Assembly (NCBI GenBank): GCA_030429865.1
Contig: JAUIFX010000002.1
Location: forward strand, 1 to 62,903
Direction of reading: 5' to 3'
Length of the DNA: 62,903 nucleotides
Source: Gammaproteobacteria bacterium
GTDB taxonomy: Bacteria > Pseudomonadota > Gammaproteobacteria > Ga0077536
This document shows positions 25,413 to 62,903 of the stretch, in pieces. A program made the translations under genes and the position numbers. The notes under the pieces were generated by a model. It was given only the letters and a program-made list of their open reading frames with translations, had not been told where the DNA came from and did not search any database. Position 1 is the stretch's first letter. Every line of letters starts with the position of its first letter.

Positions 25413-25489
25413 GGGCCTGTAGCTCAGTTGGTTAGAGCAGGGGACTCATAATCCTTTGGTCGTAGGTTCAAGTCCTACCGGGCCCACCA
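25413..25489 (+). tRNA. ileX: tRNA with CAU anticodon, most likely tRNA-Ile2 (lysidine-modified), CCA encoded
   Basis: The cloverleaf folds by hand: acceptor GGGCCTG/CGGGCCC, D arm GCTC/GAGC, anticodon arm GGGGA-CTCATAA-TCCTT, T arm GTAGG-TTCAAGT-CCTAC. It has G1-C72 (not an initiator) plus C4-G69 and C5-G68. It is close to my recollection of E. coli ileX and lies downstream of rpoD as ileX does. Confidence 0.8.
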
Positions 25490-51673: not shown

Positions 51674-51730
51674 GCAGGCGGCGGCGGTTTGCTATCTGTA
51701 AGCGCGTACTCCAATGGAACGGGCAGCGCC

Positions 51731-53059
51731 ATGCTGGAACGATTGGGCATGATCGGCGCCTCGTGGCGCCGCGGCGGCAGCGAGTCACTCGCCGGGTTCA
51801 GCCTGCCAACCGAGCAGCGCGAAGCGCGCCTGGCTGATTTCGCCGACGCGCACGGTCTCGCCGAGATCGTCTACATCGGCACCTGCAACCGGGTCGAGCT
51901 GGTCTTCGTACATGCCGACGCGGTCGCGGCATCGACCGATTTGCGCGCGGCCGCGTGGGAACTGCTGACGGGTACGCGCAGCACGCCGGGCGAAGCCAGG
52001 CGCCATCTCCGCGCCTGGGCCGGAGAGGGTGCCCTGGAACACCTCTTCCTCGTCACCGCCGCCCTCGATTCGGCGTGTCTCGGCGAAGCCGAGATTGCCG
52101 GCCAGGTACGCGCCGCCCATGACGCCGCCCGCGAACACGCACTCAGCGGCAAGGCCCTGGACCCCGTCTTCGAGGCGGCGTTCCGGGTCGGCGCGCAAGT
52201 GCGCACCGAGACGGCACTCGCGAGCGGACGCGTTTCACTCGCCGAGATCGCGGCCGACGAGCTCGCCGTCCAGCAGCGCGCGTGCGGGGGGCGGATCGCC
52301 CTCGTCGGGGTTTCGCCGATGACCGAGAAAGCCGCAGCCGCGCTGGCCACGCGTGACATACCGCTGCTCATCGTCAACCGCACGGCAGCCCGCGCGGCGG
52401 CTCTCGCCGGGCGCCACGGCGCGCAGAGCATGCTTCTCGACGATTTTCGCCGCGAGGGTGCCCGTGACGTCTGCGCGCTCCTCAGCGCCACGGGGGCCCC
52501 GAATGCCGTCGTCGGGCGCGCCGCACTCGAACGCCTGCAGGCACTCGCCCCACGTGACACCCTCCTCGTCGTCGACATGGCCGTACCACCGGATGTCGCG
52601 CCGGAGGCCTGCCGCGCACTCGGCCTGCGGCGGATCGGGATGGACGACATCGCCGCGGTGGCGGCCCGTAATCGCGGCGCCCGCCAACGCGAGGCGGCCA
52701 CTGCGCGGGAGATCGTCGACGAGGCATTGACGACGTTCATCGCGACGCAGGCGGAGCGCCGCTACGGCACGCTGATCGGCAACCTGCAACGGCGCTACCA
52801 GCACACGGCCGAGAGCGGTGTGGAGCGCCTGCTCGGCCGGGAGCTCGCCGGGCTCGGCGAAGCGGAGCGCGATGCCGTGCGGCGCTGGGCACGGGTACTG
52901 GCCCGCCGCTTCGCACATATTCCCTGCGTGGGTCTGCGCGGCTTGCTGCGCGACGGCCCGGATGGCGCGCTCGAAGCGTTCGTCGGCGGTCTCGATCCCG
53001 AGCTTGCCGACGAGTTGTTCGCTGCCCCGCGGCACGCGCCGACGGAGGCGCGGGGATGA
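51731..53059 (+). CDS. glutamyl-tRNA reductase homologue (divergent)
   Basis: GTCNRVEL (catalytic Cys motif), HLFLVTAALDSACLGEAEIAGQVR, QVRTETAL, IVNRTAARA and VVDMAVPPDV are collinear with HemA. NHKTAP is replaced by GASWRRGG, and GAGEM is replaced by GVSPM. Confidence 0.75.
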   Translation: MLERLGMIGASWRRGGSESLAGFSLPTEQREARLADFADAHGLAEIVYIGTCNRVELVFVHADAVAASTDLRAAAWELLTGTRSTPGEARRHLRAWAGEGALEHLFLVTAALDSACLGEAEIAGQVRAAHDAAREHALSGKALDPVFEAAFRVGAQVRTETALASGRVSLAEIAADELAVQQRACGGRIALVGVSPMTEKAAAALATRDIPLLIVNRTAARAAALAGRHGAQSMLLDDFRREGARDVCALLSATGAPNAVVGRAALERLQALAPRDTLLVVDMAVPPDVAPEACRALGLRRIGMDDIAAVAARNRGARQREAATAREIVDEALTTFIATQAERRYGTLIGNLQRRYQHTAESGVERLLGRELAGLGEAERDAVRRWARVLARRFAHIPCVGLRGLLRDGPDGALEAFVGGLDPELADELFAAPRHAPTEARG

Positions 53060-54189
53060 GCACACGGCCACTCGCCGCTAACATGGCAGGGCGTTTCCGT
53101 TCCCGGCGGGGCGAACCCATGGCGCTCAAGCGAGATTATGCCAAGCTGCTGCAGATCGTCTTCGTCATCCTGCTCGTGGTGTGCTCGGCACAGGTCGCGT
53201 GGTGGATCGGCGAGAACCTGCATTACGCGGAAACGACGACGGCGCGCCTGGAGGGGCTTTACCGCGACCTCGCTCGCAGCCACGCCGGGCGCAGCGCGGA
53301 GTCCCTGCCCGCTTACCTGGCGGTCGACGCCACCAGCGGCGAAATCGGCGTATCTCCTGACGTGCTCGAGGCCCTGCGAACCACCGGTGATGCCCGCGCA
53401 AGGCGCTACTACTGGGAAGGCGGCTTCTTCCTGGTGGTCTTGATCAGCGGCATGGCCGTGGTCTCGGCAGCGATCCGCCACGACGCCGCGCTGCGCCGGC
53501 GCCAGCAGAACTTCCTGGCCGGCGTCTCCCACGAGTTCAAGAGTCCGCTGGCCAGCATCCGGCTCGCCGCCGAGTCACTTGCCCGGCGGGGCAGTGCCAG
53601 CGACACCGCTCGCTGGACCCCGCGCATCATCGCCGACTGCGAGCGCCTCCTGCGCACCGTGGACAACCTGCTCGACACCGCGCGCCTGGAGGACGGCCGG
53701 CACCTCGTCACCGCGCGGCGGGTCGTGCTCAGCACCGCCATCGACCAGGCGATCGACGAACAGTCGGCACGTGCCTCGCGCGATGGCATCGCCCTCGCGC
53801 AGGAGGTCGATGATCCCGGACTCGCGCTGGACGTCGACCCGGAAGCGCTGGCAAGCATCCTGCGCAACCTGATCGACAACGGCATCAAAGCCTGCGTGGC
53901 CGGCGACGGCTCGGCGGTCACCGTGTCCGTGGACAGCGAACAGGGTCCCGTTACGCTTCGCGTGAGTGACGACGGCATGGGGTTCCCGCCCTCCGAAGCG
54001 GCGCTGTTGTTCGAGAAGTTCTACCGCGTGGGGGACGAACGCCAGCGACGCACGAGCGGCAGCGGGCTCGGCCTCTACCTGGTGCTGCGGTTGACGCAGA
54101 TGTCGGGGGCGCGTGTCCATGCCGACAGTGCCGGGCCCGGACGCGGTGCGACGATCACGGTGCGCTGGCCACCGGAGCGACGCGCGTGA
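53056..54189 (+). CDS. sensor histidine kinase (two TM helices, roughly 75-aa periplasmic loop)
   Basis: H-box SHEFKSPL, N-box LRNLIDNGIKA, G1 DDGMGF, G2 GSGLGL. ATG at 53056 overlaps the hemA-like stop (ATGA). An alternative ATG is at 53119. Confidence 0.85.
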   Translation: MSTRPLAANMAGRFRSRRGEPMALKRDYAKLLQIVFVILLVVCSAQVAWWIGENLHYAETTTARLEGLYRDLARSHAGRSAESLPAYLAVDATSGEIGVSPDVLEALRTTGDARARRYYWEGGFFLVVLISGMAVVSAAIRHDAALRRRQQNFLAGVSHEFKSPLASIRLAAESLARRGSASDTARWTPRIIADCERLLRTVDNLLDTARLEDGRHLVTARRVVLSTAIDQAIDEQSARASRDGIALAQEVDDPGLALDVDPEALASILRNLIDNGIKACVAGDGSAVTVSVDSEQGPVTLRVSDDGMGFPPSEAALLFEKFYRVGDERQRRTSGSGLGLYLVLRLTQMSGARVHADSAGPGRGATITVRWPPERRA

Positions 54190-54917
54190 CCAGCCGCGCG
54201 GAGATCCTGGTCGTCGACGACGAGGTCCATCTCGCCGAGGGTATCGGCGAGAACCTGGCAGCCGAAGGCTACGCGGTGCGCATCGCCCATGACGGCGCGG
54301 AGGGACTCGCCGCGGCGCTCGCCGAGCCGCCGGATCTGATCGTGCTCGACGTCATGATGCCGCATCTCGACGGTATCGAAGTCTGTGCTCGCCTGCGCGC
54401 GGCCGGGCTCGACACGCCGGTGCTGTTCCTGACCGTCAAGGCGGCCGCCGACGACCGCGTCGAAGGCCTCGAAGCCGGCGGCGACGATTACCTCGCCAAA
54501 CCGTTTCACCTCAAGGAGCTGTTGCTGCGCGTGGCGGCGATCCTGCGCCGCCGTACCTGGACTCCGGGGCGCCCGGGCACGCCGTTACGCTTTGGCGGCA
54601 ACGAGGTGGATTTCGCCACCTACCGCGCCCAGGCCTGGGACGGCCGCGAGCACGAGCTTCCCTACAAGGAGGCGATGATCCTGCGGCTGCTGAGCGACCA
54701 GGCAGGGTCGGTGGTGACCCGCGAGGACATCCTCGAACACGTCTGGGGCCAGGAAGTCTTTCCCTCGACGCGCACCGTGGACAACTTCATCGTCCGCCTG
54801 CGCAAGCGCTTCGAGCGCAACCCCGAACAACCCGTTCACATTCACACGGTGCGCGGCGTCGGCTACCGGCTGAGCACCGATCCGGACAGCGCCAGGGCGG
54901 CCGACGCCGCAATCTGA
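54186..54917 (+). CDS. OmpR/PhoB-family response regulator
   Basis: ILVVDDE, LIVLDVMMP, AKPF, winged helix TVRGVGYRL. The GTG overlaps the kinase stop (GTGA). Confidence 0.9.
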   Translation: MTSRAEILVVDDEVHLAEGIGENLAAEGYAVRIAHDGAEGLAAALAEPPDLIVLDVMMPHLDGIEVCARLRAAGLDTPVLFLTVKAAADDRVEGLEAGGDDYLAKPFHLKELLLRVAAILRRRTWTPGRPGTPLRFGGNEVDFATYRAQAWDGREHELPYKEAMILRLLSDQAGSVVTREDILEHVWGQEVFPSTRTVDNFIVRLRKRFERNPEQPVHIHTVRGVGYRLSTDPDSARAADAAI

Positions 54918-55047
54918 TCCCGGCCCGGATTCGGGACCGGGGCAGCGTGTATACTCCGCGCACCAGCCCCGTGCTGGCCTTCGCACGGTGGGCTCGCCGC
55001 GGTTTCCTCGCGCCACCGCGCTCTGCTGACAGTTCCCGGCCACCGAT

Positions 55048-56430
55048 GTGACTACCGACACCGAAAACCCGCAGCCAGACGTGACCCTCGTGCTCGATCT
55101 CGAGGGCGTCATCCAGCAGGTCAATCACTCGCCCGCGATTCCCGATTTCGACAGCACCGACTGGATTGGACGCGCCTGGACCGACACCGTCGAGGACGGC
55201 GGCGCGGAGAAGCTGCGGCGCCTGATCGATGACGCTTCCACGCAGGGCGTTTCGGCTTTCCGCCAGGTCAACCAGCGGTTCCCCGGCGGCAACGAGATTC
55301 TGATGGAGTACACGGCGGTGCGGCTCGACGACCGCGCCAGCCTGCTCGCGGTCGGCAAGAGCCTGCAGGCGGTCGCCCAGCTGCAGGAACGATTGGTCGC
55401 CGCACAGCAGGCGATGGAACGCGATTACTGGAAGCTGCGCCAGGTAGAGACCCGATACCAGCGTCTTTTCCAGTCGAGCAGCGAGGCCGTGCTGATCATC
55501 AGCCAACCGGATTGCCGCATCGTCGAAGCCAATCCGACCGCGGCCAGGGCCATCGATCATCAGGGCAAGCGTGGGCACGACGTGCAGGGACTGAGCTTCC
55601 TCGATGAACTCAATTCCGACGATCAGCGCGCGCTGCGTGCGTTGCTCGCGCGCGTGCTCGAGCAAGGTGCGGCCCCGGGGATCCTGGTCCACCTCGGACC
55701 GCAGCGCAGTTCGTGGATACTCCGCGCCGTGCCCATGACGACGGAACGCGGGCAGGGCTTTCTGCTGCAGATGACGGCCGGCGCCGGCAACGAACCCGCG
55801 CCACAGGAAACGCCGCAGCGTTTCTCGGTGGAAGCGCTGGTCGAGCGCATGGTCGACGCTTTCGTGATCACGGATGACGAAGGACAGGTCCTGTACGCCA
55901 ATCCCGCGTTCGCCGAACTGGCCCAGCTCAGCTCGGCCGGCGCCGCGCTCGGCAAACGCCTCTCGCGCTGGCTCGGCAACCCGGGCGCCGATGCCTCCAT
56001 CCTGCTCGCGAACGCTTTCCGGCACGGCTGCGTGCGCTTGCTCGGCACGACGCTGCATGGCGAACTCGGCGCGACCAGCGAGATCGAAATTTCGGCGGCG
56101 GTGGACGACCCGAATGCGCCGCACTTCTGTGCGCTGGCGCTACGCGACGTGGGCCGGCGCCTGCGCGCCAACGGCGAAGGCGCCGGACTCGGGTCGATAC
56201 TCGACGCACTGACCGAGCAGATCGGCAAGAAAGGCCTCAAGGATCTCGTTGCGGATGCGGTCGCGGTCGTCGAGCGGCATTACGTCGAGGCCGCGCTGCA
56301 GCTCACCAGCGGCAACCGGACCGCCGCGGCCGACGTGCTCGGCCTCAGCCGCCAAAGCCTCTACGCGAAGCTCAACCGCTACGGCCTGGACACGATTCCG
56401 GCGCGCAAGCCGAGCGATGATGAGAGCTGA
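55048..56430 (+). CDS. ppsR: photosynthesis gene repressor PpsR/CrtJ
   Basis: 460 aa. PAS repeats with the Q-linker-like MERDYWKLRQVETRYQRLFQSSSEAVLI. C-terminal Fis-type HTH NRTAAADVLGLSRQSLYAKLNRYGL. Confidence 0.85.
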   Translation: MTTDTENPQPDVTLVLDLEGVIQQVNHSPAIPDFDSTDWIGRAWTDTVEDGGAEKLRRLIDDASTQGVSAFRQVNQRFPGGNEILMEYTAVRLDDRASLLAVGKSLQAVAQLQERLVAAQQAMERDYWKLRQVETRYQRLFQSSSEAVLIISQPDCRIVEANPTAARAIDHQGKRGHDVQGLSFLDELNSDDQRALRALLARVLEQGAAPGILVHLGPQRSSWILRAVPMTTERGQGFLLQMTAGAGNEPAPQETPQRFSVEALVERMVDAFVITDDEGQVLYANPAFAELAQLSSAGAALGKRLSRWLGNPGADASILLANAFRHGCVRLLGTTLHGELGATSEIEISAAVDDPNAPHFCALALRDVGRRLRANGEGAGLGSILDALTEQIGKKGLKDLVADAVAVVERHYVEAALQLTSGNRTAAADVLGLSRQSLYAKLNRYGLDTIPARKPSDDES

Positions 56431-58600
56431 CGGCTCACCGCAGACGAATTCGACACCGGCATTTGGTAAAGCCGACCTATCGAACTGCGAGCGCGAGCAG
56501 ATCCATCTCGCCGGCGCCATTCAGCCGCATGGTGCCCTGCTCGCGCTGGACGCGGAAACGCTGCAGGTGCGGCAGGCCAGCAGCAACGCCATGGCGTTCC
56601 TGGATCTGCCCCGCGAACCACTGGGCGAGCACGTCGCCGCCCTGCCCGGCGACGTCGCCGATCAGATTGCACCCTGGCTCGATCGCGAACTGAGCGGGAT
56701 TCCCGTCGCCGTGCGCTGCCGCGTGGGCCTGTCCCGCGGGCACTACGACTGCCTGCTGCACCGCGCCCATGCCCGGATCATCGTGCTCGAGTTCGAACGC
56801 GCAGAGCGCTCGGAGCTGCGCTCCGGCACGCTGCGTGACGCGCTCGAGCGCATCGCCCAGGCGTCCTCGCTGACGGCGCTGAGCGAGAACACCGCGAAGA
56901 TTTTCCGGCAGCTGACCGGCTACGACCGGGTCATGATCTACCGCTTCGACGAGGCAGGACACGGCGAAGTCTTCGCCGAGAGCCGGGTGGACGAGCTGGA
57001 ACCCCTGCTCGGCAATCGATACCCGGCATCCGACATCCCGCAGATCGCGCGGAAACTCTACGAACGCAATCGTGTCCGCCTGCTCAGCGACGTCCACAGC
57101 GAACAAGTCCCCCTCGTGCCGCCGCGCAACCCGGTCACCGACGCCGAGCTCGACATGTCCCTGTGCACCCTGCGCAGCATGTCGCCCATCCACGTGCAGT
57201 ACCTGAGGAACATGGGTGTCTCGGGCACGCTAGTCGCCTCCCTGATGGTCGGCGGACGCCTGTGGGGCCTGATCTCCTGTCACCACTACGAGCCGCGCTT
57301 CGTGGATTACGAGATGCGTGCGCAGTGCGAGCTCCTCGCGGAAGCCGTGAGTACGCGGATTGCCGCCCTGGACAGCTTCGTGCAGGCGCGCGCCGAGCTC
57401 TCGGTACGGCGCATCGAACAACACATGCGCGCCGCCACGCGACAGCATGGCGACTGGCGGGCAGCCCTGTTCGACAGCGCCGAGCCGTTGCTATGGCCGC
57501 TCGGGGCAGCCGGCGCAGCAATGTTGTTCGAAGGGCAGGTCCACACGGTGGGCGAAGTGCCGGCGACCGAACACCTGCGCGACCTCGCCGCCTGGCTGGA
57601 TACGCGGCCGCGCGCCGCGATCTACAGCACGGCTTCGCTGGGCGCCGAGGAAGCACGCTTCGGCGCCCTCTCGCCCATACTGTGCGGGCTGCTCGCGGCA
57701 CCGATTTCGCGCACCCCGGGAGAATACCTGCTCTGGGTGCGGCCGGAACGGGTACGAACGGAGGTGTGGGGCGGAAATCCTAACGAGCCCGTCATCGTCG
57801 GCGACGACCCCGCGGATTTGTCGCCGCGACGCTCGTTCGCCAAGTGGCACGAGCTGGTCCGCGGCACCGCCGATCCGTGGAGCGAAGCCGATCTCACCGC
57901 CGCCAATCTGATCGCGGGCTCGGTAGCCGACGTCATCAACCAGTTTCGCTCGGTGCGCGCGCTGATCGTGCGCGACCAGCTCGAGGAACTTCACAGCCAG
58001 GTGCGCGGCGCCGAACAGCCCATACTGATCTGTGATGCCGAGGGCAACGTTCTGCTCGTCAACCACGCGATGTTGCAGCTGCTGCCGTCACCCGACGACC
58101 CGCCGCAGCACCTGCTCGAGCTCGCCGCACCCTTCATCGATCACGATGCCGCTCGAGCCTGTCTCGATGCGCTGTTGCGTGCCCGTCAGCCATGGCACGC
58201 GGAGGTCGAGTGCCAGGCCCGGGATGGCGACGCACTGCCCCTGCTGGTGCGCGCCGATCCGGTGATCTCGCCGCGCCAGAAGCTACTCGGCTTCGTCGTG
58301 CTGTTTACCGACATCTCGGTGCAGAAGAACGCCGAGCGTGCCCGCGCGCGCTTCCAGGAACGCATCATCGATCGCAGCGCGCTTTCCCGATTGCGCCTCA
58401 CTAACGAAGGTGACGCGCAGTTTCGCAAGTTGATGTCCGTAATAGTCGATAACGCTCAACTCGCTGCCCTCGAAATTACCGACGGCCTCAATCCGCAGCG
58501 CATGCCGGGCATGCTCGACGGCGTGCAAGCGAGCGTCGCACGCTCCACCGAGCTGCTCGAGATCCTGCTGCGCCATGCCTCCCGCTCAGCGCGAAGCTGA
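56417..58600 (+). CDS. bphP: bacteriophytochrome without a histidine-kinase output (PAS-GAF-PHY-PAS plus helical tail)
   Basis: Biliverdin Cys in DLSNCEREQIHLAGAIQPHG. Also RVMIYRFD, YPASDIPQIARKLY, SPIHVQYLRNMGV, and the PHY tongue WGGNPNEP...PRRSFAKW. No H/N/G1/G2 kinase boxes in the C-terminal 230 aa. Confidence 0.9.
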   Translation: MMRADGSPQTNSTPAFGKADLSNCEREQIHLAGAIQPHGALLALDAETLQVRQASSNAMAFLDLPREPLGEHVAALPGDVADQIAPWLDRELSGIPVAVRCRVGLSRGHYDCLLHRAHARIIVLEFERAERSELRSGTLRDALERIAQASSLTALSENTAKIFRQLTGYDRVMIYRFDEAGHGEVFAESRVDELEPLLGNRYPASDIPQIARKLYERNRVRLLSDVHSEQVPLVPPRNPVTDAELDMSLCTLRSMSPIHVQYLRNMGVSGTLVASLMVGGRLWGLISCHHYEPRFVDYEMRAQCELLAEAVSTRIAALDSFVQARAELSVRRIEQHMRAATRQHGDWRAALFDSAEPLLWPLGAAGAAMLFEGQVHTVGEVPATEHLRDLAAWLDTRPRAAIYSTASLGAEEARFGALSPILCGLLAAPISRTPGEYLLWVRPERVRTEVWGGNPNEPVIVGDDPADLSPRRSFAKWHELVRGTADPWSEADLTAANLIAGSVADVINQFRSVRALIVRDQLEELHSQVRGAEQPILICDAEGNVLLVNHAMLQLLPSPDDPPQHLLELAAPFIDHDAARACLDALLRARQPWHAEVECQARDGDALPLLVRADPVISPRQKLLGFVVLFTDISVQKNAERARARFQERIIDRSALSRLRLTNEGDAQFRKLMSVIVDNAQLAALEITDGLNPQRMPGMLDGVQASVARSTELLEILLRHASRSARS

Positions 58601-59284
58601 GTCGCCGGCACGGCCCGCGACCGCCGCGGAAAGCGCGATGGTGTGACGGAACGCCACGCAGGCCTCGGCGACGATGCCGTCGTGATCAGAACGCTTCGCG
58701 GCATGCGCGATCGCCGCGCGCAACGCATCGGTCAAGGTGGGCGACACCGGGGAAGCCGTATCGGTCGGCACGCGCTCGGGAAAATCGAAATAGGCCAGGG
58801 CCTCGCGCGGTACGTCGAATCGTTCTCGCACCAGGCGCCGCAGGATGCGGCCACCGGAAAGGTCGCCGAGATAGCGCGCATAGACATGCGCCAGAAGTAA
58901 CGGGGGATGAGTAGCAGCGAGGGTCGCCAGATGCGCCGCGTAGTCCGCCGCCGGGGCCACGAGCGGCAGGTCCTCGCGCCAGTTCGGACCGGCGAGGCGG
59001 CCGAGGTCGCGCGTGAGGGCCGGGCCGCGGCGCAGCACGCCGCCATCGAATGGCGCCAGGATGGGACGCGCCTCGAGACCCAGCTCGAGGGCCGCATAGA
59101 CCGGGACCAGATTGCGCAGCAGCAGCAGGTAACCGTCGCGTGTAGCCCGTCCCGCGATCAGCGCACCGTAGATACCGCCCCGTTCCGCCTCGGTGTGCAG
59201 ATCGCGCGTCGCCGCGCGCAGCCGCGCGAGCAGGGACACCGGCGCTACCGGGTCAAGCGCCTGGTTCCGGATGACCTCGTCCAT
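58586..59284 (-). CDS. bphO: heme oxygenase (biliverdin-producing, BphO-like)
   Basis: LLARLRAATRDLHTEAE, YLLLLRNLVPVY, HVYARYLGDLSGG. Confidence 0.85.
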   Translation of the reverse strand: MDEVIRNQALDPVAPVSLLARLRAATRDLHTEAERGGIYGALIAGRATRDGYLLLLRNLVPVYAALELGLEARPILAPFDGGVLRRGPALTRDLGRLAGPNWREDLPLVAPAADYAAHLATLAATHPPLLLAHVYARYLGDLSGGRILRRLVRERFDVPREALAYFDFPERVPTDTASPVSPTLTDALRAAIAHAAKRSDHDGIVAEACVAFRHTIALSAAVAGRAGDSASR

Positions 59285-60554
59285 TCGTGCATGATACGTG
59301 ACCGTCCGGCTCCTGCGGGGCGCGGCGGGAACGGCGTTCCGGTCGCCGATCGAGACCGTAGGGAGCGACCAGTGACCACACGTGTGGCGGTATCAGGTGA
59401 CGCATCAGGCGCGGTCGCTGGCGGGCAAGATGCAGGACGGTCTCCGCCGCCTTCATTTCGACGCGGGCGCGCGCGAACTCGAGGCCGCGCGGTCCCACCC
59501 GCGGCATCAGGAAACCGAGCAAGGGCCGCAGCCAGCGCGGAGTGCGCCGCAGGGGCAGCCCGCCCGCGGCCCGCTCGAGGTTGGCAACGAAGCCCCGCAC
59601 CGCACTGGCGCGCCGCCCACCGCTGCCCGGCGCGGCCAGGCGCACTTCGCCGGTAAGCTGGTCGAGCAGCATCTCGCCCCGCGCATTGCGCACGATCAGC
59701 CACTGCTCGCCGTCACCGCCCATGTAACCGACGGTGATGTCGGCGAGCGCGTTGGTGTAGTCGACGCAGGTCCGGCAGGTGAGCGGAAAGAAATCCGCCG
59801 GCAGGTCCGCAATTGGCAGGGAAAGAAACGGGATCGCCTTGCGCCGACCGTCGTCGAAACGCAGTTCGACGTGGTAGTCGGTGCGGAACTCGAGATAGTT
59901 GATGGATTCGGGCTGGTCGCTGAGCAAGGCGAGGAAGTCGTGGAAGCGGTCCGTCGTCGTGTTATCCGAACAGGGCGTGCCGATCACGTAGAGGGCGTCG
60001 AAATCGAGTTCGGTTTCGAGCGCACGCAAGGCATGGACCTGGCACGGAATCCCGATGATCGCGAGTCGGCGCAGCCCGCGCTCACGCGCGGGCTCGAGAA
60101 GTGCGAGCAGCGGCGCGAACCCCATGCGCATGCCGCGGCACTTCGCGAGTTCGGCAGGGTCGGTGACGAGCACCGGCACCGGCTTCCAGCGGTCTTCCGG
60201 ATCCGGAGCGACGGTCAGCACCGCGTCGACGGTACCCGTCTCGAGCAGGCGCTCGGCGAGACGCGTGGTGATACCCGACCATTGCGCGCCCGCTCTCGGC
60301 GCGACGAGGCTAGCGCGAAGCAGGCGCCGAAACGGTCCGAAGAAACGCTCGTCGGAGCGATCGGCGGCACGCGAACGCCCATGCACGCGCTCTTCGAGCG
60401 CCGCGTGGTCGGGCCGGATGAACTGGCAGGCCTGCGCGCAGCGTGACGGCTTCGAAGTCCGCGAGATGCCGCAATCCGTACACAGCGTGCGCGGTGCGGC
60501 GTCGGCCAGCGGCGGCAGCGCAACACCGGGCAGCCGCGCACCCGAAGCCGGCAT
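59253..60554 (-). CDS. F420 hydrogenase/dehydrogenase beta-subunit (FrhB) family protein, possibly a BciB-type 8-vinyl reductase
   Basis: 433 aa. CTDCGISR...C..ACQF, LAIIGIPCQVHALR, VIGTPCSDN and CRTCVDYTNALADITVGYMG are FrhB/BciB-like. Starts 7 nt after pufC. Confidence 0.6.
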   Translation of the reverse strand: MPASGARLPGVALPPLADAAPRTLCTDCGISRTSKPSRCAQACQFIRPDHAALEERVHGRSRAADRSDERFFGPFRRLLRASLVAPRAGAQWSGITTRLAERLLETGTVDAVLTVAPDPEDRWKPVPVLVTDPAELAKCRGMRMGFAPLLALLEPARERGLRRLAIIGIPCQVHALRALETELDFDALYVIGTPCSDNTTTDRFHDFLALLSDQPESINYLEFRTDYHVELRFDDGRRKAIPFLSLPIADLPADFFPLTCRTCVDYTNALADITVGYMGGDGEQWLIVRNARGEMLLDQLTGEVRLAAPGSGGRRASAVRGFVANLERAAGGLPLRRTPRWLRPLLGFLMPRVGPRGLEFARARVEMKAAETVLHLARQRPRLMRHLIPPHVWSLVAPYGLDRRPERRSRRAPQEPDGHVSCTNGRGHPEPGA

Positions 60555-60561
60555 GATCCGG

Positions 60562-61557
60562 TCAGTCGCCTTGCAGGGCCGGGAACTCGGCGATCACGCT
60601 GGCCCCGCCCATCGGCTTGGGCAGGCCCTGGTGGCAGGTCCCGCAGTTGACCTTGGGCGCGTCGCCTTCCGGGCCGAGACGGTGCTCGGGGAGGACTTCG
60701 GCGAGCGGCGAGACATAATCGCCGTTGAGTGCCCGGACCATCTGAATGCCGTGCCAGGCCGTCACGCGGGTCGGCGGACTTTCGTCCCAGTTGTAGAACG
60801 CCCGCGTGTTGTGACAATAGGTGCAGTTGACGTCGAGTGCCTCCGAGAGATGCATCATCAACGCGTATGTCGCCTCGGTGTCCTTGATGTTCCGGGTGTT
60901 GCCGCGCGGCAAGGCCGAGTTCGTCGCCACGCGGATCGCGGCCTCGCCGTCGAGCATGTCGGTGAACGGGTCGACCGGCAACGATGCATACTGCGGCACC
61001 GGCGAAGGTGCGTTCTGCCCGGCCCGGTTACCCGCGAACACGCCCGCTTCCTCGACATTGGAGAACCAGGTCGTTGCAGGCACGTTCTCGCCGCGGTGGC
61101 AGGTGAAGCAGGTCACCCCGGTTTCGCCGACATGGGCGTGTCCACCGCTGTTGATGAAGCGTGTCATTTCGATCATGCGCCGCGCGACCACCTTCGTATA
61201 GAGTGCGTCGCTCGCCATGTCTGCGCCTTCATGGCAGTAGGCGCAACCCTGGTCCGGGGCAACCCAGGTCGTCAGCGCGGTCATGAGGCGGGTGAATGAC
61301 GCAATGTCGAGATCGCCGAGCAGCTGCACGTTCTGGTAGATATCGCCGGCTTTGGGTCCGCCGCCGGGCGCCGCCGGCGGCAACGCCGGCATCGCGGTGT
61401 CGGTCATGATCTTGTCGACCACCTTCATGTTGTCGACCTGCACCATGCCGGTCCCGCGAAAGCCCTGCTGGACGGACTCGGGCGGCGGGGCCTCGCAGCC
61501 GCTCAAGGCCAGTGCCACGCCCAGGCCCACGATGACATGTGCTTGCAGGAATCTCAT
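60562..61557 (-). CDS. pufC: photosynthetic reaction-centre tetraheme cytochrome subunit
   Basis: Four CxxCH motifs (CAYCH, CFTCH, CTYCH, CGTCH). Lipobox LALSGC. The ATG overlaps the pufM stop (ATGA). Confidence 0.9.
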
Positions 61558-62528
61558 GGCGCACCTCCGGCCGGGTCGGTGACGGCCGGAAAGACGTCGG
61601 GATAGGCTGGCGCCACCCCGTGCTTGACCGACCACAGGAACCAGTTGTCGACCGCGGTACCCGTCAGCAGGATGCCGATACCGCCGGTCAGCGGGCACAG
61701 CACCGCGAACCACCACGCCCACCGATGGATGGACTCCATCGTTGCGTTGAAGCCCATCGTCCAGCGCCAGAACAACGCCGCCCGCTCGGACGCCGTGCCG
61801 CGGTCGACCACTTGTTCGATCTCGCGTTCTCCACCGTAGCGGCTGACCGCGAGAATGGTCGCCCCGTGCATCGCGAAAAGCAGCGTCGACCCGTAGAGAA
61901 ACGCGATCGACAACATGTGGAACGGGTTGTAGAAGAGATTGCCGTACCTGATCGAGAACGCGGCCGTCCAATCCAGGTGCGGGAAGATTCCGAAGGGTAC
62001 GGCTTCCGACCAGCTGCCCATGAGCAGCGGACGAATGAAACCGAGCACGAGATAGAGCCAGATCGCCGCCGCGAAGGCCCACGCCACGTGCGTGCCCATG
62101 CCCAGCGCGCGAGCCCGGGTGTACACGCGGACCCACCAAAGCACGATGGAGGCGGTGAGGAAGAAGCCGGCGATCAGCCACCAACCGCCGTCGTTCAGTG
62201 GAGGGAACAAGCTGATCCCGTATTCCGCTCCCGGAGGCTCCAGCGCCAGCCATGGCAGCTGGCGTACGAATTCGACCGGACTCCAGTCGACCGAGGCCCA
62301 CATGTTGAGTCCGATGATTTCGATCGCGATGAAGCCGCACAGCAACGAGGCGATACCGGTCGTGCCGAGATGGATCGGCCCGATCTGGGCATCACCGAGC
62401 TTCCCCAGCCAGTAGGAGAAGAACGGCCGGCCTGCGCGCGGCCACAGTTCGTGTTGCTCAGATGGCACGCCGTCGTAGGGCGGCGCATGCACCTGAACGC
62501 GAGTGAAGATGTTCTGATATCCAGCCAT
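61554..62528 (-). CDS. pufM: photosynthetic reaction-centre M subunit
   Basis: [13 protein letters not shown]..., [43 protein letters not shown]. Confidence 0.95.
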
Positions 62529-62542
62529 GGCTTAGTCGCCTC

Positions 62543-62903
62543 CTACCACACCGGCAAGTTGAGCCACCAGGTCCACCATTCCGGCCAGCCCCGGGTCCAG
62601 AAGGGTCCGCTGATGACGATGCACACCGCGCTCCAGAAGCCCGCCGAGAGCGCCAGGAAGAGCCCCAGGCGATGGATTCCGAGGGTTCCTATCGAATAGC
62701 CGATGGTGTCGCGGAAGAAGGTGTTCTCGTGTTCGACGGTCTTCACCGCCTCGCCCTTGCGCGGGTTGGTTGCCGACAGGATCAGGGATCCGTGCAGTGA
62801 CAGCGCAAAGGTCGTTGTGAAGAAGAAACTGACCGCGAGCATGTGCGCGGGGTTGTAATGGAAGTGAAGGTACTGGTACCCGACATTGGAGACCCAGTCG
62901 AGA
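62543..62903 (-). CDS. pufL: photosynthetic reaction-centre L subunit, 5'-truncated by the window edge
   Basis: The frame is open to the window end: ...[44 protein letters not shown]...[18 protein letters not shown] before pufM, 14 nt downstream. Confidence 0.95.

Follow-up and report, generated by a model that had tools for sequence, protein, structure and literature searches.

The ppsR-bphP locus

The 62,903-nucleotide (nt) stretch of DNA analysed here (contig JAUIFX010000002.1 of assembly GCA_030429865.1, 'Gammaproteobacteria bacterium'; hereafter the window) encodes on its forward strand a PpsR/CrtJ-family repressor (ppsR, 55048..56430) followed by a bacteriophytochrome (bphP, 56420..58600), the two genes overlapping by a few nucleotides. 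The original prediction, made from the sequence letters, had likened this couple to the ones of RpBphP1 and BrBphP (i.e. a PpsR partnered by a sensor with PAS/HOS-type output), and the likeness was borne out by the Pfam and TIGR02040 profiles, by the structure 4GW9 and by the predicted fold.

The repressor gene opens with GTG 55048, closes with TGA 56428-56430 and encodes 460 amino acids. Its product is recognized by TIGR02040 (PpsR-CrtJ equivalog) with 441.6 bits (cutoff 275.4) over residues 8-447, contains the Pfam domains PAS_4, PAS_8, PAS and HTH_8 (the last a Fis-type helix-turn-helix, HTH, at residues 405-445), and matches the Rhodobacter sphaeroides PpsR structure (PDB 4HH2, E = 2.8e-30). 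The HTH region carries no Cys (VVERHYVEAAL): ERHY(V/I)E is the reading in the window and in most PpsRs linked to bphP, as opposed to the ERLCIE of the PpsR1-type second copy in a Burkholderiales metagenome-assembled genome (MAG; locus L005). Since the HTH Cys is missing, as it is from PpsR2 in the majority of R. palustris and Bradyrhizobium strains, where the redox Cys is lacking (PMC6899989), the window PpsR is assigned to the PpsR2 type, its membership in the family not being thereby denied.

The bphP frame is open through TGA 58598-58600 and encodes 726 amino acids (727 if ATG 56417 is the start). Pfam recovered PAS_2 (PF08446), GAF (PF01590) and PHY (PF00360), all above their cutoffs, together with PAS_9. 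The photosensory core PAS2-GAF-PHY spans 56486..57943 (Pfam and motif coordinates) and includes the DIP motif, His258 and the WGG...PRRSF tongue. The putative chromophore-binding Cys (Cys23 in the 726-residue numbering, codon 56486..56488, within SNCEREQIHL) is invariant, in an N-C-E-x-E context, in an alignment of 12 alpha-, beta- and gammaproteobacterial family members (A1), and aligns with the RpBphP1 Cys of 4GW9; D205-I206-P207, H258, W450-G451-G452 and P469-R-R-S-F473 are equally invariant in A1. All the photosensory hallmarks that had been read from the letters were found in place, i.e. NCEREQIHL (56483-56509), ASDIPQIARKLY (57026-57061), SPIHVQYL (57182-57205) and, in the PHY tongue, WGG (57767-57775) and PRRSF (57824-57838).

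The C-terminus had been described as kinase-less, and the hidden Markov model (HMM) domain scan with Pfam agreed, finding PAS_9 and neither HisKA nor HATPase_c in BphP. The PAS9 output domain (57986..58318; PF13426 PAS_9, E 1.3e-08 to 1.7e-09, 35-38 bits against a cutoff of 27) aligns, as far as residue 639, with the PAS9 domain of 4GW9 and is followed by only ~93 residues, too few for a kinase core; the last 88 of these gave no Pfam match even at E<=10, weak HisKA similarity being likewise absent. The AlphaFold2 model (built from the 12-sequence alignment, mean predicted local distance difference test, pLDDT, 72) places a helix at residues 489-530, a PAS9 fold with its beta-sheet core at 535-631, a linker helix at 633-659 (58316-58396) and a helix pair at 662-689 and 695-723, without an alpha/beta ATPase domain. 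This helix pair constitutes the HOS-like two-helix C-terminal output (58403..58588). The tail columns NAQLAALEITDG and ML..V..S..R...L..L..H are invariant over the alpha-, beta- and gammaproteobacterial members of A1, which fits a conserved protein-protein output surface. HOS domains are distant homologues of the dimerization and histidine phosphotransfer (DHp) domain (Papiz et al., PMC6899989), and as the 4GW9 structure lacks the HOS domain (PMC6899989) the tail has no solved counterpart for comparison.

Sequence and structure searches led to the same protein. PDB 4GW9 (RpBphP1, Rhodopseudomonas palustris) matched BphP over residues 11-639 (E = 3.7e-217, 726 bits), and Foldseek ranked it first against the BphP model (54% identity, target-normalised template modelling score 0.77-0.81), with XccBphP forming the next group. 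By these sequence criteria BphP belongs to the type 3 (PAS9+HOS) BphP1 subfamily, here paired with a PpsR2-type repressor.

The junction between repressor and sensor

Within 45 codons 5' of the chromophore Cys, the only start codons (ATG/GTG/TTG) in the bphP frame are ATG 56417 and ATG 56420, and therefore ppsR and bphP overlap by 14 or 11 nt; the ppsR stop and an overlap of this extent, both claimed originally, are thus upheld by the inspection of frames and start codons. We favour ATG 56420, which corresponds to the database gene call (726 amino acids) and has a homologous ATG in three relatives, and which gives an 11-nt overlap at 56420..56430 (forward strand, ATGAGAGCTGA, read directly from the sequence). 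As the bphP frame is +1 relative to that of ppsR, the locus encodes two proteins from overlapping genes and no fusion; the phrase 'translationally fused' in the original prediction, if read as a single polypeptide, was wrong. A seeming in-frame ppsR-bphP fusion in another locus (L042) was a script artefact, the stop codon lying inside the tblastn alignment.

The overlap, ATGA(A/G)(G/A)GCTGA, is common to the window, its sister MAG (locus L001, 80% BphP identity) and a rock-porewater metagenome contig (L086, 67%). Upstream of the bphP start, pairing with the anti-Shine-Dalgarno sequence (-2.2 kcal/mol) is no better than background (median -2.7 kcal/mol), in contrast to pufC and pufM further along the window (-10 to -11 kcal/mol). 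The overlap, together with the want of a Shine-Dalgarno sequence at bphP, suggests cotranscription of bphP with ppsR and a translation of bphP that is coupled to that of ppsR, and the conservation of the overlap at 67-80% protein identity makes such coupling reasonable to infer. The 'one translational unit' of the original prediction goes no further than this plausible inference.

The edge of a photosynthesis gene cluster

Downstream, the heme oxygenase gene bphO (58586..59284, reverse strand; PF01126 Heme_oxygenase, E = 9.5e-34), the presumptive source of biliverdin, is convergent with bphP, the 3' ends of the two genes sharing 15 nt (58586-58600); a convergent bphO 3' of bphP recurs in many related loci. 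Beyond it, also on the reverse strand, are found a bciB-like gene (59253-60554, Pfam FrhB_FdhB_N/C), pufC (60562-61557), pufM (61554-62528) and a partial pufL (62543 to the window end at 62903). The three puf genes were recognized from their open reading frame translations, and their equivalents in L001 and L086 were called with CytoC_RC, Photo_RC and LHC, ahead of bchZYX. Because bphO and then the bciB-like gene, pufC, pufM and the partial pufL adjoin bphP, the locus marks one border of a photosynthesis gene cluster continuing past the window end. As bphO ends the pufLMC-bciB string, biliverdin supply may share a transcript with the reaction-centre operon.

Upstream, on the forward strand, ppsR is preceded by a hemA-like glutamyl-tRNA reductase (GluTR) gene (51689-53059), a membrane histidine kinase gene (53056-54189; its product crosses the membrane twice and has a periplasmic loop) and an OmpR-type response regulator gene (54186-54917), the latter two identified by domain search. 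The hemA-like product scores 201.5 bits with TIGR01035, just below the cutoff of 209.55, and has the catalytic TCNR motif intact. The order hemA, kinase, regulator is also present 5' of ppsR in the sister MAG, and kinase and regulator recur in L086. The hemA-like gene may encode a GluTR paralogue that belongs to the cluster and has a two-component system of its own to control it.

The gammaproteobacterial character ascribed to the surrounding backbone was confirmed: uppP, folB, folK, tsaD, dnaG, rpoD and one tRNA with anticodon CAT are present elsewhere in the window, and the best RpoD matches (95-76% identity) come from MAGs labelled Gammaproteobacteria, Proteobacteria or Pseudomonadota wherever a label exists. 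The single tRNA (25413-25489, forward strand) sits directly 3' of rpoD and was called tRNA-Met by ARAGORN; the name ileX given to it (a tRNA-Ile2 with lysidine) is possible by position. The G+C content amounts to 69.8% over the window, with fractions of 0.67 for ppsR plus bphP, 0.70 for the backbone and 0.644 for pufCML.

Regulatory sequences

The only long identical run in the alignment of the window and L001 intergenic regions is a block of 13 nt, GTGTATACTCCGC (54947..54959, forward strand), situated ~90 nt 5' of ppsR in an otherwise diverged spacer. Its first part, GTGTATACT (54947-54955), recurs 5' of ppsR in L001, L086 and a Joint Genome Institute (JGI) metagenome contig (L003). The block may be a -10 element (TATACT) of a ppsR-bphP promoter, or a regulator site. 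As a PpsR palindrome it was rejected, since the TGT-N12-CCA near-match at 54949-54966 is not kept palindromic in the sister MAG, where only GTGTATACT is retained. A promoter and terminator scan of 54700-59500 returned no promoters and two terminator-like matches at chance level.

Two matches to the PpsR operator consensus TGTN12ACA occur in the window, both distant from the locus and fewer than expected by chance (the puf/bch/crt promoters lie mostly beyond the window end), and none in the sister locus L001. In many alpha- and betaproteobacterial loci a perfect TGTN12ACA stands just 5' of the bphP-linked ppsR, ~50-250 nt upstream (L008, L013, L015, L017, L025, L030, L031, L034, L035, L036, L043 and L046), which suggests autoregulation in those loci.

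Relatives and distribution

The nearest BphPs (80% identity) belong to two 'Gammaproteobacteria bacterium' MAGs (GCA_040220855.1 and GCA_040216455.1). Both have the order Aldedh-MgtC-MFS-Nramp-hemA-kinase-regulator-ppsR-bphP-bciB-pufCML-pufA...bchZYX with the same 11-nt overlap and without a bphO at this position. There too the backbone (with a 95%-identical RpoD) and the bphP cluster are apparently linked, as this RpoD is encoded on a contig equal in length (85,164 nt) to the one with bphP. In the porewater contig the order is kinase-regulator-ppsR-bphP-bphO-bciB-pufCMLAB...bchZ, with the same GATGAAGGCTGA junction, and in the JGI contig (63% identity) ppsR-bphP-bphO, with a 1-nt gap between ppsR and bphP.

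For a broader view, a profile built from the family alignment was scanned against one genome per GTDB species, which yields a sample rather than a census (600 stretches listed, the window's own lineage not among them). A ppsR-like gene lay directly 5' of bphP, on the same strand, in 44 of the 46 listed loci in which the match extended through PAS9-HOS, and in none of the listed loci matching the photosensory core only. By their labels, the hosts of the PAS9-HOS loci were Alphaproteobacteria (Bradyrhizobium, Rhodopseudomonas, Rhodoplanes, Roseomonas, Acidiphilium and others), Betaproteobacteria (Burkholderiales MAGs, Methylibium, Rhodoferax, Methyloversatilis), Gammaproteobacteria (Lamprocystis and uncultured MAGs) and MAGs labelled Myxococcota. 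Their ppsR-bphP junctions mostly ranged from -11 to +33 nt, with -4, -1, 0 and +1 frequent. The best 120 database clusters to BphP were all of 716-763 amino acids, with PAS2-GAF-PHY(-PAS) and no kinase domains. With PAS9-HOS as query against 1.84 billion representatives, 178 matches were obtained at E<=1e-10; those covering the whole query were ~720-residue proteins (or fragments) with the match at the C-terminus, spread over dozens of 50%-identity clusters, and many multi-PAS proteins aligned to the PAS part only.

Two ppsR genes were present in the Burkholderiales MAG L005 (3094-4530 and 8605-9981) and in a 'Pseudomonadota' contig, L088 (876-2339 and 6626-7975), in each case an aerR-linked PpsR1-type copy (ERLCIE) and a bphP-linked PpsR2-type copy, a layout that mirrors, outside the Alphaproteobacteria, that of Rhodopseudomonas and Bradyrhizobium. 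Two further ppsR-bphP loci come from MAGs labelled Solirubrobacterales (L009) and Enterobacteriaceae (L035); because in the trees their sequences group with those of Burkholderiales, these host labels are probably binning or labelling errors.

In public genomes, then, ppsR-bphP(-bphO) is the usual cassette in Alpha-, Beta- and Gammaproteobacteria, and the arrangement is an ordinary one; that the pair should be unusual, as first supposed, does not hold, close gammaproteobacterial relatives carrying the identical overlap, a circumstance which the original prediction had itself named as one that would make the pair ordinary. In the open-access literature we came upon no paper on a BphP-PpsR pair from Gammaproteobacteria; what we found treats it only for Rhodopseudomonas and Bradyrhizobium (PMC6899989, PMC10569730).

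Host lineage and evolution

In neighbour-joining trees of BphP and of PpsR (calculated without bootstrap and thus indicative only), the window, the sister MAG and the JGI contig (P0005) are in each case united on a deep branch of their own, outside the alphaproteobacterial genera and distinct from a Chromatiaceae group and a deep betaproteobacterial group. The two trees group taxa alike, as expected if PpsR and BphP form a co-evolving pair. The window BphP shares 55-58% identity with the best alphaproteobacterial proteins, as compared with 63-80% within its clade. Of the two origins that had been proposed for the module, these data favour a little-described phototrophic lineage (gammaproteobacterial, as far as MAG labels reading 'Gammaproteobacteria bacterium' tell), with a syntenic puf/bch cluster and a branch of its own, over a recent acquisition of the module alone, which is unlikely because of the separate clade and a G+C content near that of the backbone.

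Discussion

We consider it very probable that the locus is a PpsR2/BphP1-type light-controlled antirepressor module of an uncultured gammaproteobacterium, in which it forms one edge of the photosynthesis gene cluster. PpsR (PAS-PAS-HTH) would repress the photosystem, bacteriochlorophyll and carotenoid genes, BphO would make biliverdin, and BphP would bind it. By analogy with RpBphP1/RpPpsR2 (PMC6899989, PMC10569730), far-red light would drive BphP from a presumed far-red-absorbing (Pfr) ground state to the red-absorbing (Pr) state, in which the freed PAS9/HOS surface would bind PpsR, so that the repression of photosynthesis genes would be lifted. Coupled translation would hold the sensor:repressor ratio fixed.

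Several observations weigh against this scheme. The HOS region was modelled with moderate confidence (pLDDT ~55-74), the sister MAG has no bphO between bphP and bciB (L001 12181-12195), and no TGTN12ACA operator was found near the locus in the window, L001, L086 or L003. The sign of light control in aerobic phototrophs may differ from that in R. palustris, and the PpsR1 of Bradyrhizobium is an activator (PMC10569730).

The known systems frame the comparison. With RpBphP1/RpPpsR2 of R. palustris the window pair shares the N-terminal Cys, PAS2-GAF-PHY, PAS9, a two-helix tail and the want of a kinase (~54-60% identity over residues 11-639), as well as a ppsR directly 5' on the same strand, an adjacent heme oxygenase gene and a PpsR without HTH Cys. 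It differs in its gammaproteobacterial host, in the 11-nt overlap (~0 nt in the examined Rhodopseudomonas loci) and in that the part of the cluster within the window shows no second ppsR, aerR or PpsR boxes. BrBphP/PpsR2 of Bradyrhizobium likewise comprises a phytochrome and a ppsR2 within a photosynthesis cluster, where far-red light controls photosystem synthesis (PMC10569730), and a Bradyrhizobium MAG (L012) has the same ppsR-bphP-bphO order; however, BphP identity is ~53%, there are two PpsRs of opposite roles there as against the one ppsR seen in the window, and the flanking genes are not the same, the window pair standing between hemA-like, kinase and regulator genes and bciB-pufCML. XccBphP of Xanthomonas campestris, next after RpBphP1 in the structural search, is itself a gammaproteobacterial, kinase-less type 3 phytochrome with PAS9 output, but it shares only 27-28% identity, lacks the HOS tail and a PpsR partner, and regulates virulence (PMC6899989). 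In AppA-PpsR (Rhodobacter sphaeroides) and LdaP-PpsR (Dinoroseobacter shibae) a photoreceptor also sequesters PpsR (homologous to ours, cf. 4HH2) and so relieves repression, although these receptors are flavin-based (BLUF or LOV), sense blue light and are unrelated to phytochromes.

The regulatory logic itself might be different, PpsR being an activator or dual regulator, light repressing pigment synthesis (as in aerobic anoxygenic phototrophs), or BphP having a Pr ground state. The activating PpsR1 of Bradyrhizobium and the differences between aerobic and anaerobic phototroph systems (PMC10569730) speak for such a logic, as does the window clade's lack of canonical PpsR boxes where many alpha- and betaproteobacterial loci have one just 5' of ppsR. 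We nonetheless hold it to be rather unlikely, given that in the tree the window PpsR falls among the repressors linked to bphP (PpsR2 type) and not with the PpsR1-type copy, and that the output region is highly conserved between the window BphP and RpBphP1.

Less likely still is that hemA-like GluTR, kinase, regulator, ppsR and bphP make up a clade-specific unit, wired unlike the alphaproteobacterial paradigm, in an undescribed lineage of uncultured phototrophic Gammaproteobacteria. If it were so, the strictly conserved 11-nt overlap would force sensor and repressor to be made in stoichiometric amounts by coupled translation, and the far-red signal would be combined with a two-component input and the supply of tetrapyrrole precursors, with canonical PpsR boxes absent.

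A recent transfer of ppsR-bphP-bphO from an alphaproteobacterium into a gamma-type genome is very unlikely. The characterized examples are all alphaproteobacterial, and ppsR plus bphP lie slightly under the backbone in G+C; yet the difference is small (pufCML being lower still), the window clade is not nested in an alphaproteobacterial genus in the unbootstrapped trees, identity to Alphaproteobacteria stays well below that within the clade, and the module sits in a puf/bch context conserved among relatives at 67-80% identity. An ancient transfer of the whole photosynthesis cluster between classes is possible.

That BphP acts not (or not only) on PpsR but by way of the histidine kinase and OmpR-type regulator encoded nearby (53056-54917), e.g. 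by HOS/DHp pairing in a split phytochrome-kinase system, seems to us most unlikely. The distant DHp homology of HOS domains (PMC6899989) and the position of the two genes directly 5' of ppsR in the window, the sister MAG and the porewater contig would suit such a route. Against it, they are not beside ppsR-bphP in L003 or in the inspected alpha- and betaproteobacterial loci, the linkage of bphP to ppsR being nearly universal; the kinase, with its two transmembrane segments and periplasmic loop, is typical of an envelope or solute sensor; and the conserved promoter-like block separates the regulator gene from ppsR.

The chance that a single PpsR-BphP polypeptide arises by a programmed +1 frameshift in the 11-nt overlap, or that the overlap is a sequencing error, is next to nil: one shift within 56420-56427 would join the frames (and a fusion was suggested by the title of the original prediction), but the two-frame overlap with its intact TGA is found again, independently assembled, in two sister MAGs and in two porewater contigs, which makes an assembly error unlikely, no slippery motif is evident in GATGATGAGAGCTGA, and in other members the genes lie +1 to +30 nt or more apart with stops in all frames, so that fusion is not conserved.

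With the antirepressor module as the preferred reading, the locus is a known regulatory pair in a little-described phototrophic gammaproteobacterial lineage. It extends a well-studied far-red switch, the same that underlies the BphP1-PpsR2/QPAS1 optogenetic tools, to an uncultured gammaproteobacterial phototroph, and leaves the mechanistic understanding of that switch unchanged. Its uses lie in annotation and in providing a source of diverged BphP1/PpsR2 pairs, and it shows the ppsR-bphP-bphO cassette to be widespread and to co-evolve as a unit, not only in Alpha-, Beta- and Gammaproteobacteria but also in other MAGs.

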